Virus record (IMG/VR): IMGVR_UViG_3300017728_000097
Coordinates: 1-25,546 of that record
Source of the DNA: a virus
Lineage: Duplodnaviria > Caudoviricetes
Length of the DNA stretch: 25,546 nt
Direction: 5' to 3' (one strand)
Shown here: piece after piece, positions 4,101 through 25,466 of the stretch
Layout: the number at the start of each line of letters is the position of its first letter
Position numbering within the stretch: position 1 is the first letter of the stretch
The notes under the pieces: model-generated
What the model saw: only the letters and a program-made list of their open reading frames with translations
Database searches by the model: none
What the model was told of the DNA's origin: nothing
Program-made: the position numbers and the translations under genes

Positions 4101-6593
4101 TTAAATCCTTGTTGAACGATTATGATAATATCCTTCTACCTCTGCACTAGCAATATACATTGGCAGGTGTGAAGAACTTTTAATATCTAATGTAAAATCT
4201 GTGTTTCTACATGAAACGGGTACCTTAATAGTTCCTGAACTAATAGCAGGTACACCTACTTTACTTGTAGCTGTTCCAATAACATACCCATTCATAAATG
4301 AATAACTTGTGCTTCTACCGTTAGGTGTTACTTCAACTTGAAAGTAACCTGAAGTTTCATAGTTTAATGATATGTTTCTAATTTGATAACGTCCAGAAGT
4401 AATAGCAACTAATCCTCTGCCTGAATTTTCTCTAACATACTGAGGTGACATTCTATATTTACTTTCATATGGAATACCAATAATTAAATTTGTGTGGTTA
4501 CCTTCTATAGTGTAGGTAGAGCCTGTTGTATTTGTTACAGAATAATTATTTCCGTTAACGCCATCTACTGCTATTAAACCAGTTTTAACACCATACGGTG
4601 ATGTAAACGTAGTTAAGTTAGTATTAGCATCATACGTGCCTGTAACATTCTGTCTTAAATCTAAATAAATATTAAAACCTATAGTACCGTTTCTTAAATT
4701 TCTTAAATCAATTTTTATTAATTTAGTATCTGTTCCTTCTACTACTAACAAATAAACAAAACTTTCAAAAGACATACCACCTAATATTTTAGCATTATCA
4801 AATGTCCACTTAGACCATGCAGTTTGTACTTTTTCACCTTTATCAAAAAAGTATTTATAGATAAACATAGTACCACCATTAGTTGATGTAATGTCTGTAC
4901 CTGTAGTGTAAGGTGCCGTTTGTGTATCTGCTGTATCTGAAGCTAATGTAATTAAAGTATCTTCAGTTGTATTACTAATTAATTGATATGCATTACTTGG
5001 TATTAAGTTTTGTACTGATACTGTAATATCTAAACCATCATTAGTTAGTGTATCATCATCTGCATAGTATTCTCTAATTGCTGTATTATTATTTCTTGCT
5101 TGTGCAAAGTATGCATATTTACCTGCTGATACAGGTTTTACATTTGCATCAAATTCAAATGCTGATACTTCATTAAGAACAGCACTTGTAGGAGATATTG
5201 TTTCTCCAACACTTCCTAATTTATACTGTGCTTTTTCAGAAAACAATAATAAACTTTCATTAAATGCAACACTATCAAATAGTGTATTAACTTCAGAACC
5301 TGAAGCTGCAATATCAATTGGGTCTGTATCTAATACTTGTGTAACTGTTTTAGAAAAGAAATTAAAGAAACCTGCATTTTCAGATAAAATTAAATTATCT
5401 CTTGAAAGCATGCCTAATCTATTTTTATAAAACAATAAATTATTAATTTGGTTTCCTACAAAACTTGGATTAGAGTTTGTAATACCATCTCCTGCATTTC
5501 TATCATCCCAATCTATTTCTTGAAATGTAAATGTACCATCATTATTATTTATTAAAGCATGTGGTAATGTAGAGTTATCTAAACCAAGACTTACATCTTG
5601 ACCTATAGTTTCTTTCCAAACACCATCTGTTTCAAACTTTACATAATAATCAGATAATGTATCTCCATCTTCACCTGTAACTTTTATAATACTGTCAGTA
5701 CTTGCGTGATAAGGTAATTTTGTAAAGTCAGATATTTCATCTCTTATAGAATACATACCTGTATTACCAGAACCATCAGCTGTTAACACTGTGTAATTAC
5801 TATTGCCATCTGTTGAAATACCTCTAATAACACCCGGATATTGAGACATAGTAAAATAATTAGTTACTTCCGAAGATGTTCCTAATCCTTGAGTTGTGCT
5901 TAAAGTTGCACCTGTGTCTTCTCTAGTTAATTTAAAACTAGCATCTGAAGATGCATCAAAATAAGTACTAGACGTACCTCTAAATAAAATATCTGCAATA
6001 TGTGCTGTATCTCTAAACACAGCATCATGGTTTAAATTACTACCACTTGGCATTTGTAAAGAAGATTTAACAGCATAAGACATATTAGGATGTTGTACTG
6101 TTACAGCATATTCTCTACCATAATTAGATGTAACAACATTAATATAAAATTCTTCTATCTTTGCAGCACTTGTGTTTGTATCTGCTAAAACTGTAGTTTG
6201 TTTATTTGCAACAAAAGTGTAGTCTGCAATGTTAACTAATTTAAAATCTGCTTTAGGATTAGTTGAAGTTAAATAACTACCACCACTTGCTATTGTAACA
6301 GGTTTTTCATTACCATCTAAATCATAAACTTTTACACCACCATTATAGAATATAACAACAAATTGATTATCTTTATCTCTTTGTATAGACCAAAACTTTA
6401 CAGTGTTAGGAAATACATTGGTAGCATCTATAGTGTCTATATATTCAAAAGCAGGTCTTTTAGATAAACCATCTACAATATTGTTTTGTAAATTTACCTG
6501 TTCTTCTGCTTGGTTGATACCTCTCTGTGTTGGTGTTTGTTGTGAGATACCATTCAGAAAATTAGGAATACTCTGAGATACTACTCCACCCAT
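4101..6593 (-). CDS. Tail tubular protein B / nozzle (T7 gp12-like)
   Basis: 830 aa. N-terminal VSQSIPNFLNGISQQ and GLSKRP, plus NPSFVG, FYKNRLG, DPIDI and QTAWSKW, are typical of gp12. Confidence 0.93.
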   Translation of the reverse strand: MGGVVSQSIPNFLNGISQQTPTQRGINQAEEQVNLQNNIVDGLSKRPAFEYIDTIDATNVFPNTVKFWSIQRDKDNQFVVIFYNGGVKVYDLDGNEKPVTIASGGSYLTSTNPKADFKLVNIADYTFVANKQTTVLADTNTSAAKIEEFYINVVTSNYGREYAVTVQHPNMSYAVKSSLQMPSGSNLNHDAVFRDTAHIADILFRGTSSTYFDASSDASFKLTREDTGATLSTTQGLGTSSEVTNYFTMSQYPGVIRGISTDGNSNYTVLTADGSGNTGMYSIRDEISDFTKLPYHASTDSIIKVTGEDGDTLSDYYVKFETDGVWKETIGQDVSLGLDNSTLPHALINNNDGTFTFQEIDWDDRNAGDGITNSNPSFVGNQINNLLFYKNRLGMLSRDNLILSENAGFFNFFSKTVTQVLDTDPIDIAASGSEVNTLFDSVAFNESLLLFSEKAQYKLGSVGETISPTSAVLNEVSAFEFDANVKPVSAGKYAYFAQARNNNTAIREYYADDDTLTNDGLDITVSVQNLIPSNAYQLISNTTEDTLITLASDTADTQTAPYTTGTDITSTNGGTMFIYKYFFDKGEKVQTAWSKWTFDNAKILGGMSFESFVYLLVVEGTDTKLIKIDLRNLRNGTIGFNIYLDLRQNVTGTYDANTNLTTFTSPYGVKTGLIAVDGVNGNNYSVTNTTGSTYTIEGNHTNLIIGIPYESKYRMSPQYVRENSGRGLVAITSGRYQIRNISLNYETSGYFQVEVTPNGRSTSYSFMNGYVIGTATSKVGVPAISSGTIKVPVSCRNTDFTLDIKSSSHLPMYIASAEVEGYYHNRSTRI

Positions 6594-24056: not shown

Positions 24057-24074
24057 TCTACTATGGGAACCTTA
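24057..24074 (-). promoter_or_regulatory. Candidate phage RNAP promoter upstream of the RNAP gene
   Basis: TAAGGTTCCCATAGTAGA, a near-identical copy of the 21546-21563 motif. Confidence 0.7.
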
Positions 24075-24434
24075 GTCAGGCTCCCTAGTAGTAACTTGTA
24101 GCTCATTAGAAATAGCAAACTTTGGCGCTAGTTTAGATGTGAGTATATTCTCTATAAACTGCGCTGCTCTATGTGCTATTTGGTTTGGTGTCATTGCGTC
24201 ATACGCTTCAACAGATTGTGTTTTCTGTAAAAACAATATGATTTTCTTTTTAAGCTCCCAATCTATTTTGATATTTTTGTATTGGTTAAGCTCAGTGTTA
24301 CGCTCAAGTAAATCAGACTTAGCTTTTTTTAAATCAAAAAGCCAATCATTAGCTTTAGTTTTAAATGTAATAAGCTCAGCCTCTAATTTATTATTCTTAT
24401 CAATCAAATGTTGTATTTGTTCTTTATCTGTCAT
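24072..24434 (-). CDS. Early hypothetical protein with an N-terminal coiled coil, 120 aa
   Basis: AGGAG SD, heptad-like Leu pattern, overlaps the upstream ORF. Confidence 0.75.
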   Translation of the reverse strand: MTDKEQIQHLIDKNNKLEAELITFKTKANDWLFDLKKAKSDLLERNTELNQYKNIKIDWELKKKIILFLQKTQSVEAYDAMTPNQIAHRAAQFIENILTSKLAPKFAISNELQVTTREPD

Positions 24435-24606
24435 TGTGCTCCTGTAATGATTTGATTTGTTTATCTGTTAGTTGTGTTGTTTGTTCAAAAGGGTTAATGC
24501 TACGCTCCTTCTTAGGTGTTCGCATTGCATGTATTATACCGGCTATTATTGTACCTAGTATTAATACATGTCCTTCAAATGGTAGTCCTAGTATTAGTTC
24601 AATCAT
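24424..24606 (-). CDS. Early small membrane protein, 60 aa
   Basis: AAGGAG SD. Hydrophobic segment VLILGTIIAGIIHAM followed by basic residues. Confidence 0.75.
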   Translation of the reverse strand: MIELILGLPFEGHVLILGTIIAGIIHAMRTPKKERSINPFEQTTQLTDKQIKSLQEHNDR

Positions 24607-24630: not shown

Positions 24631-24715
24631 GTAACAGACTAAAGCCGGATAGTACCGGCTCTAGTTTCGCCACGTGGTATTCACTCACCACGCATAATAG
24701 GCTCATCAGTGTTAC
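24631..24715 (-). ncRNA. Hammerhead ribozyme, type I
   Basis: GUAACA-CUGAUGA-GCC(UAUUAU GCGUGGU GAGUGAAU ACCACGU)GGC-GAAA-CUAGAGCCGG(UACUAU)CCGGCUUUAG-UC/UGUUAC. All core nucleotides and three stems are present. Predicted cut between 24637 and 24636. Confidence 0.93.
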
Positions 24716-24924
24716 TCGTAACTTCTTTGTTTTATAACGACACTAACTTCAATTTCAGTGCCGTCATGTGCTTCGTCAAGCTCAGCAACTAAAGGTATTA
24801 ATTTTTTAAAACGTATACCTTCATCACTGTTAAGACGTACTATTGTATATCCGCCTTCATATTTATCTTTTTTTTCATTCCATTTATCACCTATTACTTG
24901 TACATCATATTTACTTACATGCAT
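24712..24924 (-). CDS. Early hypothetical protein, 70 aa
   Basis: GAGG SD. Its UAA stop forms part of hammerhead stem I. Confidence 0.75.
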   Translation of the reverse strand: MHVSKYDVQVIGDKWNEKKDKYEGGYTIVRLNSDEGIRFKKLIPLVAELDEAHDGTEIEVSVVIKQRSYE

Positions 24925-24925
24925 A

Positions 24926-25231
24926 TTAATTACCTCTTATTGTTTGTTTTAGTTTTTGGAACTTTGCATCAGTCTCAGCTTGTTCAATCTCAGACTTAAA
25001 CTTGCTTAGCTCCGCTCGTTTATCAAGACCCGCAGGCTCATCAATTCTGAGACCTGCACTATTAAACCATTTACCAGTACTGGTTAGATAGTATTTTGAC
25101 TTGACTTTTTTTACCTTGCATGGGTCAACCTTGCCATCAGGTTTTAACAAGTATACTGACTTATTAAAATTCTGATACAACCGGTCAACCCAACGCTCAT
25201 TAATAAAGTTAGATACAACGATATTAGGCAT
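24926..25231 (-). CDS. Early hypothetical protein, 101 aa
   Basis: TAATG-coupled to the upstream 43-aa ORF. Basic, with no recognisable family. Confidence 0.75.
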   Translation of the reverse strand: MPNIVVSNFINERWVDRLYQNFNKSVYLLKPDGKVDPCKVKKVKSKYYLTSTGKWFNSAGLRIDEPAGLDKRAELSKFKSEIEQAETDAKFQKLKQTIRGN

Positions 25232-25362
25232 TAATGACCCGCCTTGCTGTAACCGTTGTTTAACTTCATTCTCACGGCTAATCTTTTATTTCTAAAAGCT
25301 TGCTCGTCAGCTAGCATTTTTTGATGCAAGTAATTGTATATTATTTTATATAGCATATTCAT
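25231..25362 (-). CDS. Early hypothetical microprotein, 43 aa
   Basis: Not in the track. MNMLYKIIYNYLHQKMLADEQAFRNKRLAVRMKLNNGYSKAGH. AGGAG SD and TAATG overlap with the next gene. Confidence 0.75.
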   Translation of the reverse strand: MNMLYKIIYNYLHQKMLADEQAFRNKRLAVRMKLNNGYSKAGH

Positions 25363-25398
25363 ATAGCTACGCTCCTATGTTGATTGTTTGAACTTACT

Positions 25399-25466
25399 GA
25401 GCTCATCAGTCATGGCTTAACCATGAGACAAAGCGCCGGACGTTACAACGGCGCAATGTTTCGCTC
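25399..25466 (-). ncRNA. Hammerhead ribozyme, type II
   Basis: GAGC-GAAA-CA-uu-GCGCCG(UUGUAACGUC)CGGCGC-uu-UG-UC/UCAUGG(UUAAG)CCAUGA-CUGAUGA-GCUC. Complete core and three stems. Predicted cut between 25427 and 25426. Confidence 0.92.

Follow-up and report, generated by a model that had tools for sequence, protein, structure and literature searches.

Hammerhead ribozymes between the early genes of a T7-like pelagiphage: a candidate self-cleaving array for segmenting early transcripts

It has been proposed that the clustered hammerhead ribozymes of prophages, which flank single genes or small groups of them, cut transcripts into mRNAs the length of a gene or an operon (Perreault et al. 2011, PMC3088659). 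For three tandem prophage arrays, cleavage was reported in vitro, and for one in E. coli (PMC3088659). Both the hammerhead class and the idea of transcript processing are already known from that work. According to a 2026 paper, the roles of small genomic ribozymes are 'elusive' in most cases (PMC13725137). In phage T7, the early RNA is processed by RNase III, which cuts at five sites and yields mono- and dicistronic mRNAs (PMC4858673). After cleavage by the glmS ribozyme, the mRNA with the 5'-OH end is rapidly degraded by RNase J1 (PMC3997798). A literature search that covered only a minority of the subscription journals turned up no report of hammerheads in pelagiphages or in Autographiviridae. 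The word 'ribozyme' is absent from the main text of three pelagiphage studies (bioRxiv 410191, PMC12753301, PMC11066056). Moreover, neither 'Pelagibacter' nor four motif strings occur in the searched supplements of Perreault et al. (2011), in which PDF text may split sequences and Dataset S1 may hold marine copies (PMC3088659).

The two hammerheads described here lie in a stretch of viral DNA of 25,546 bases (the window), whose genes are located on the minus strand. The gene of the T7-like single-subunit RNA polymerase (815 aa; 24014-21567) encodes a protein with 99.1% identity to the RNA polymerase of HTVC142P and 95.6% identity to that of HTVC031P, and both phages are filed under Autographiviridae, Pelagivirus. 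Judged by these identities, the window is part of an HTVC031P/HTVC142P-like, T7-like pelagiphage, in agreement with the original prediction of a T7-like phage early region. HTVC031P has no integrase and has been called a putative obligate lytic phage (bioRxiv 410191).

Both hammerheads are placed among the small early genes directly upstream of the polymerase gene. The first of these genes is truncated by the contig end and only its 3' end is present in the window (25546-25478; TAA 25480-25478); the complete 53-aa ORF is found in a close relative (L003:5376-5537) and matches PHROG 25588 (E 4e-9). Three ORFs of 43 aa (25362-25231), 101 aa (25231-24926) and 70 aa (24924-24712), which together span 24712..25362, make up the 790-nt unit that is predicted to extend from one cut to the other (25426-24637). 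Two further ORFs of 60 aa (24606-24424) and 120 aa (24434-24072) follow downstream of the second cut (24072..24606). Ten early proteins were searched and none received a function from Pfam or PHROGs: the 43-, 101- and 70-aa proteins gave no Pfam match and a single weak PHROG match, for the 43-aa protein only, and the 60- and 120-aa proteins matched neither collection. The 43-aa protein resembles the end of an early protein of 120-140 aa in more distant relatives, which hints that a gene was split at the slot of the first hammerhead.

The first element is a type II hammerhead, in which stem II is open (25466-25399, minus strand), as judged from a descriptor parse, folding and the family alignment A2. 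It begins 11 nt past the TAA of the 53-aa gene. Stem II has four base pairs (25466-25463 with 25402-25399), stem III consists of 3 bp, a 2x2 U/U loop and six G-C pairs, and stem I is a hairpin of 7 bp. The conserved parts are GAAA at 25462-25459, the core CUGAUGA at 25409-25403 and the cleavage triplet GUC at 25429-25427. The predicted cut falls between 25427 and 25426, and the 3' product opens with the stem I hairpin and has a leader of 64 nt. The folding z-score is -2.7. By eye, no Watson-Crick loop I pseudoknot is evident in alignment A2, in which loop I varies, the tail is constant and a consistent complement is missing.

The second element is a type I hammerhead with open stem I and an extended stem II (24715-24631, minus strand), recognised by the same means with the family alignment A1. 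Stem I comprises 6 bp, stem II 3 bp followed by a bulge and an extension of 8 bp, and stem III 11 bp. CUGAUGA is located at 24709-24703, GAAA at 24668-24665 and GUC at 24639-24637. The cut is predicted between 24637 and 24636, the leader has 30 nt and the folding z-score is -4.3. In both elements, a CUGANGA core is present between stems I and II, GAAA lies between stems II and III, and the NUH triplet is accompanied by a paired A15.1-U16.1. By anatomy and conservation, both elements are complete sense-strand hammerheads.

Several details of the original prediction could thus be confirmed. The elements indeed differ in topology, their stem sequences are unrelated (the longest word common to both is 10 nt of core), an independent parse gives the same 5' ends, 25426 and 24636, and no other gap in the early part of the window is as large as these two, of 115 and 105 nt. 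An AGGAG Shine-Dalgarno sequence also stands ahead of the gene that follows each element (25376-25372 for the 43-aa gene, 24619-24615 for the 60-aa gene). However, the claim that each element sits right after a stop codon does not apply to the type I element, since the TAA of the 70-aa gene (24714-24712) falls within its stem I.

The elements were read on the minus strand and parsed with a custom hammerhead descriptor in a relaxed and a stricter version. The relaxed version gave 0.11 hits per shuffled window; the stricter one, whose threshold was set after parsing by eye and which both window elements pass, gave none in 100 shuffles. A third descriptor match in the DNA polymerase gene (17147-17063) was not found by the type I model and was dismissed as a chance match. 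The original prediction had also suggested a search with the Rfam hammerhead models, in which no match within the window reached the gathering score. In E-value mode, only the type I element was found, weakly, by the RAGATH-1 hammerhead model (RF03152; 26.5 bits versus a cut-off of 56.3), and the RAGATH-1 5' hairpin is unformed in this element. Hammerhead_3 (RF00008) matches four type III copies in relatives (E 2e-9 to 4e-8), independently of the descriptor selection; its gathering cut-off was reached by none of 26 records (best score 41.4 versus 48.5). Standard Rfam cut-offs thus overlook the Pelagivirus hammerheads, and in the genome records examined hammerheads are not annotated. The window elements are three-way junctions with helices of at most 11 bp, unlike a long RNase III-type hairpin.

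The alignments of type I (A1), type II (A2) and type III (A3) hammerheads contain 44, 18 and 21 distinct copies. Pairs that have changed on both sides number 16 of 20 in A1, 14 of 19 in A2 and 11 of 16 in the type III alignment. The cells are paired in 97-98.5% of cases versus 27-46% in slid controls, percentages that are partly circular because the rows had been picked by a descriptor that demands pairing. The core is invariant except for N7 in A1-A3, whose rows were selected for the core, and the stems turn over. The cleavage triplets of 95 distinct copies comprise 77 GUC, 17 GUA and one GUU, the descriptor admitting only U followed by A, C or U. Stem lengths are fixed, types II and III share an invariant U seven nt past the cut, and conserved As occur in loop II or in the 3' tail.

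Because the pairing-based selection of rows is partly circular, a test based on gene slots was run too. The 43-aa gene gave 39 matches, with a type II element directly upstream in 23; two were too near the contig end, and the other 14 read as partial matches within a longer ORF. For the 60-aa gene, a type I element is located directly upstream in 25 of 34 matches and one inserted gene further in four; four have none and one was too short. As regards a loss of cores in relatives, which the original prediction had raised, most relatives keep the cores, but four of the 33 loci with the 60-aa gene have no nearby hammerhead and one lineage carries a dead core, in which stems I and III are kept (L057:5944-6016). 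In the closest cultured relative, HTVC142P, the type II element is gone along with its flanking genes, and one of the early gaps of HTVC168P contains a plain hairpin. Two copies with altered cores were seen in other loci, one with an extra A after the core (L063:352-426) and one whose stem II has a U-U mismatch at its base (L064:5158-5240).

The early region continues past the contig end in two relatives, L002 and L003, which over 4 kb share 99.9% and 99.6% identity with the window. Both contain four hammerheads of types III, I, II and I at -2854, -2032, -1413 and -623 from the polymerase start. By this comparison, the window holds the last two members of a four-hammerhead array (III, I, II, I when read from where the early region begins), and the survey of relatives suggested at the outset has yielded both covarying stems and further copies. 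In 73 IMG/VR loci, the sequence upstream of the polymerase start (193,336 bases) contains 137 sense hits, versus 14 weak ones, all with a stem III of only 3 bp, in the 447,796 bases downstream; antisense hits number two. Many of these loci are near-duplicates, so that the counts show position and not independent events.

Three covariance models were built from A1-A3, and 21 whole phage records were searched. All 12 Pelagivirus records examined, which represent 12 of the 17 distinct phages listed with at least 64% polymerase identity, carry one to four hammerheads, all in the early region if copies at the right end of records starting at gp01 are included. HTVC031P has four copies, Eistla, HTVC168P, HTVC109P and MedDCM-S35-C6 three each, HTVC142P and HTVC019P two each, and HTVC022P, 021P, 304P, 201P and 121P one each. 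The type III copy of HTVC121P (661-777) has a long insertion in stem II and overlaps an annotated ORF. One locus with three hammerheads (L086, NZIV01000032.1) is filed in a Marinimicrobia genome bin; it resembles HTVC109P and is probably misbinned. Per locus, copy numbers range from one to five, and in single slots the hammerhead is missing or a plain hairpin has taken its place. The integrase-less clade has the largest arrays, with 3.6 copies on average (n=25) versus 1.5 in integrase-bearing loci (n=10); this link with integrase loss rests on one clade (99 SH-aLRT in a quick tree), and the descriptor undercounts the integrase-bearing group. In the integrase-less clade, the copies are spaced every 0.4-0.8 kb ahead of the gene for the phage RNA polymerase.

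In 17 other Autographiviridae (669,688 bases), a model-free scan, which covered records of more than 40 kb except for their middle stretches, gave four hits, of which one is convincing. T7, P-SSP7 and the other pelagiphage genera showed no hammerhead. The convincing hit is in the roseophage CRP-125 (38169-38226; L096:470-526), a phage of Roseobacter, in which a clean hammerhead of type III precedes the first early gene; four other CRP phages have no hammerhead of this type. BLAST searches with two hammerheads against phage records returned only Pelagivirus and CRP-125 itself, in addition to chance words of 21-22 nt. Rfam at E 0.1 detected no ribozyme in ten outgroup stretches, a search that is insensitive since it also missed the stretch with the CRP-125 hammerhead. 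Two further features were noticed in relatives, outside the window. An 11-nt motif (GACTAGACGGC) gives 68 hits in sense orientation, all of them upstream of the polymerase gene, and no antisense hit (for instance L012:5584, L076:6334, L078:1174 and L079:2337); GACTAGACGGC is often found just 3' of a hammerhead or in its stem III, and sometimes forms one arm of a hairpin. In HTVC011P, a tRNA match that is unannotated in the record (5592-5673, L088; Rfam, 57.7 bits) is located between the integrase and RNA polymerase genes and is probably tied to the attachment site.

The topologies follow a fixed order. Among 35 loci with at least 3.3 kb of upstream sequence, 22 have a type III copy, which comes first in all 22 and never after type I or II. 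Only two of 162 hits overlap an ORF by more than 25 nt, and the gene maps of relatives show units of one to three genes between cuts. The flanking genes are inconstant; for instance, genes of three different families are found downstream of the type I copy that follows the 70-aa gene. The leaders are A/C-rich and short, with median lengths of 41 nt in type I, 64 nt in type II and 65 nt in type III. Upstream of the cut, the last 45 nt have mean folding energies of -20.0 kcal/mol for type I, -15.0 for type II and -9.5 for type III, versus a background of -5.4, and thus the upstream unit would end in a strong hairpin after an internal cut.

At the new 5' end, the stem I hairpin is present in types II and III. 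In type I, a second partner for the 3' strand of stem I with five Watson-Crick pairs lies just downstream in 21 of 49 distinct 3' ends, versus a mean of 1.5 and a maximum of six in 1000 mononucleotide shuffles under the same strict matching, and 1% when the strand was swapped for that of a different stem variant. An earlier test with dinucleotide shuffles of 30-nt tails gave a weak signal (mean run 4.45 versus 3.81). The second partner follows four stem variants, whose copies are related. In many relatives, it forms a covarying hairpin of 5-6 bp, and the window copy has only 4 bp (24626-24623). For types II and III, the test was weak (strict matches in 0 of 16 and 3 of 16). The second partner would displace stem I after the cut, free the product and cap it.

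The gap preceding the RNA polymerase gene contains no hammerhead. Instead, a conserved 22-nt motif is located there (24076-24055), which recurs just after the gene (21565-21544); no copy is expected by chance. The sequence is conserved across the clade, and a look-alike was found at L003:3680. We had considered the hairpin in this gap as an RNase III site; however, relatives keep the sequence and not the pairing, and the motif recurs after the gene, which argues for reading it as a promoter. The motif is probably the promoter of the phage polymerase, and a copy upstream of the polymerase gene would mean positive feedback. Two RNA-library contigs begin 20-21 nt past the end of the motif core. 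Scans of L003 for sigma-70 promoters and terminators gave counts at chance level.

RNA evidence was available as assembled metatranscriptome contigs, which came from three RNA runs and from a fourth run that is flagged as probable DNA and were mapped on L002. The stretch from the first cut to the polymerase start contains 14 listed left ends, 5 of them 13-18 nt past a cut site (p about 1e-4, post hoc); when the doubtful run, which shares one start, is omitted, the numbers are 4 of 12 (p about 7e-4, post hoc). Such ends occur at three of the four sites, both sites of the window among them, and no listed contig starts near the fourth. One RNA-library contig corresponds to 25409 to 24715 of the window, which is the predicted unit less its structured ends. 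None of the listed pieces bridges a cut, which is not significant (p about 0.1). Depth is 2-7, 31 of the 38 pieces are listed, uncovered stretches are uninformative, and hairpins and strain variation also break contigs; the contig ends are thus a weak hint of cleavage. The published infection data for HTVC022P indicate, for six genes considered, that its early region is strongly expressed at 1 h, that gene-level expression shows no step over its one hammerhead (gp07 96,306 and gp08 74,812 TPM at 1 h) and that early transcripts drop several-fold from 1 to 9 h (PMC12753301).

We propose that the two window elements are active hammerhead ribozymes, which would act in cis and split a long early transcript; the resulting units would comprise one to three genes and have a 5'-OH start about 30-80 nt before a ribosome-binding site. 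Topology would follow position: type III would trim a non-coding leader and leave little structure on the upstream piece, and types I and II would cut between genes, so that their long GC-rich stem III would stay as a 3' hairpin of the upstream mRNA. The 5' hairpin of the downstream mRNA would be provided by stem I in types II and III and by the second downstream partner in many type I copies. In this way, the ribozyme array would do the job that T7 gives to host RNase III. Since the elements are conserved, covarying, on the sense strand and confined to early gaps, transcript processing is their best reading, as originally predicted; and because the array shares the place and about the same number of the T7 RNase III sites, segmentation is the best reading of that processing. 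As a whole, an active array that segments the early transcript appears to us the best explanation, held with moderate confidence. Cleavage in vivo is highly probable and segmentation is likely to be the selected function, and whether the net effect is a longer mRNA life we rather doubt, if only slightly.

Stabilisation by the 5'-OH end as such, as the original prediction had it, is not supported in view of the rapid decay of the glmS product. Any stabilisation probably needs the terminal hairpins, which may protect the products in a host that has RNase J. Indeed, HTCC1062 encodes RNase III (rnc, SAR11_1053), RNase E/G (rne, SAR11_0731) and RNase J (rnj, SAR11_0900) according to Table S5 of PMC12753301. 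Thus, processing without host enzymes, also part of the original prediction, is not forced by a lack in the host, and the idea that the ribozymes exist because the host lacks RNase III was rejected on account of the rnc entry in that supplement. It is a tentative and rather unlikely extension that Pelagivirus has replaced the RNase III punctuation of T7 with position-coded permutations (type III in the leader, types I and II between genes), with both ends hairpin-capped and products unable to re-join. If true, such an array would protect the early phage mRNA against the RNase E and RNase J of the host, perhaps during a breakdown of host RNA as proposed for ribosome-deprived cells infected by HTVC031P (PMC11066056).

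The same cuts could have the opposite outcome and serve as decay signals in the manner of glmS, in which the 5'-OH ends would give RNase J an entry and uncouple the units; the synthesis of early host-takeover proteins would thereby be limited to a short pulse or be graded in amount. The RNase J of HTCC1062, the degradation of the 5'-OH glmS product by RNase J1 (PMC3997798; bioRxiv 2023.03.12.532304), the fall of early HTVC022P transcripts and the weak 5' hairpin of the window type I product all fit this idea. However, a shut-off of transcription explains that fall equally well, and covarying hairpins at or near the new 5' end (types II and III and about half of type I) together with long 3' hairpins suit protection better, and we therefore regard decay as unlikely. 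The ribozymes may also be insulators, that is, natural counterparts of RiboJ, which would give each gene block a fixed leader, aid translation and let modules swap, with mRNA life being secondary. RiboJ provides a hairpin-capped fixed 5' end and increased mRNA roughly twofold and protein by a factor of two to ten (PMC6206723), and the persistence of a ribozyme while neighbouring genes change, as after the 70-aa gene, and the short A/C-rich leaders would agree with such a role. But the predicted accessibility of the ribosome-binding site is no higher after cutting (0.47 to 0.50 and 0.63 to 0.60), and most early genes have no ribozyme directly upstream. The insulator idea overlaps with segmentation, differs only in what is selected and seems quite unlikely as the main explanation.

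That the copies occur only before the phage RNA polymerase gene, at their close spacing in the integrase-less clade, and stop before the probable phage promoter would also be expected if the cut acted co-transcriptionally. In this case, upstream RNA would be dropped from the host polymerase and Rho loading sites or RNA-DNA hybrids would be removed, so that transcription runs through the early region. We consider this very unlikely, as it leaves the covarying second-partner hairpins and the fixed order of topologies unexplained and as T7 and other Autographiviridae do without hammerheads. Most improbable is that the elements are slow or uncut in vivo and function chiefly through their hairpins, as terminators, stabilisers or RNase III sites, or that they are neutral passengers. 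The dead core in L057, the plain hairpin of HTVC168P and the core variants L063 and L064 point in this direction, and a ribosome terminating at the stop codon in stem I would be expected to unfold the type I element. Against this stand core positions that are invariant while the stems turn over, the predominance of GUC and GUA in the cleavage triplets, and the three permutations of one core, which are hard to explain by a hairpin role alone.

Arrays occur in the cultured SAR11 phages HTVC031P, HTVC019P, HTVC022P and Eistla with exact predicted cut sites, and infection RNA-seq has been published for HTVC022P, so that end mapping is directly feasible. The predicted cuts fall after positions 296, 1333, 2148 and 40986 in HTVC031P and after 2353 in HTVC022P. 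Moreover, the SAR11 hosts are the ocean's commonest bacteria. What is new with respect to the prophage clusters is the occurrence in a T7-like genus with cultured members, the ordered layout of all three permutations and the covarying end hairpins. Like the clusters of Perreault et al. (2011), the pelagiphage arrays consist of several close copies with varying flanking genes and comprise types I, II and III (PMC3088659), but here the array is carried by a T7-like genus, is richest in the integrase-less clade and has a fixed order of topologies. While the majority of the type II hammerheads in that study, though not all, have a loop I pseudoknot (PMC3088659), the pelagiphage type II elements have no evident one. 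Among Rfam families, RAGATH-1 (RF03152) is the best match of the type I element and Hammerhead_3 (RF00008) that of the type III copies in relatives, all below the cut-offs.

The glmS ribozyme likewise cleaves itself upstream of a coding sequence and leaves a 5'-OH end in a cell that contains RNase J (PMC3997798); it belongs to a different ribozyme class, is triggered by a metabolite and leads to decay, and its product is not described as hairpin-capped in that source. RiboJ shares a hammerhead's position upstream of a ribosome-binding site as well as the fixed, hairpin-capped 5' end (PMC6206723), but it is synthetic and present as a single copy after a promoter, whereas the pelagiphage copies are natural, repeated between genes and of three permutations. 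A parallel in layout is T7, whose RNase III sites are also located between small early genes ahead of the single-subunit RNA polymerase, five in number compared with three to five hammerheads in the pelagiphage clade; the pelagiphage products, mono- to tricistronic, would be similar to the early mRNAs of T7. Unlike in T7, the cuts would be made by the RNA itself and not by a host enzyme, and the RNA polymerase gene is preceded by a probable phage promoter and no hammerhead. Hammerhead cleavage leaves 5'-OH and cyclic phosphate ends, and RNase III leaves 5'-phosphate ends. As both systems occupy the same region, they would allow a clean comparison of enzyme- and ribozyme-based punctuation within one phage family.
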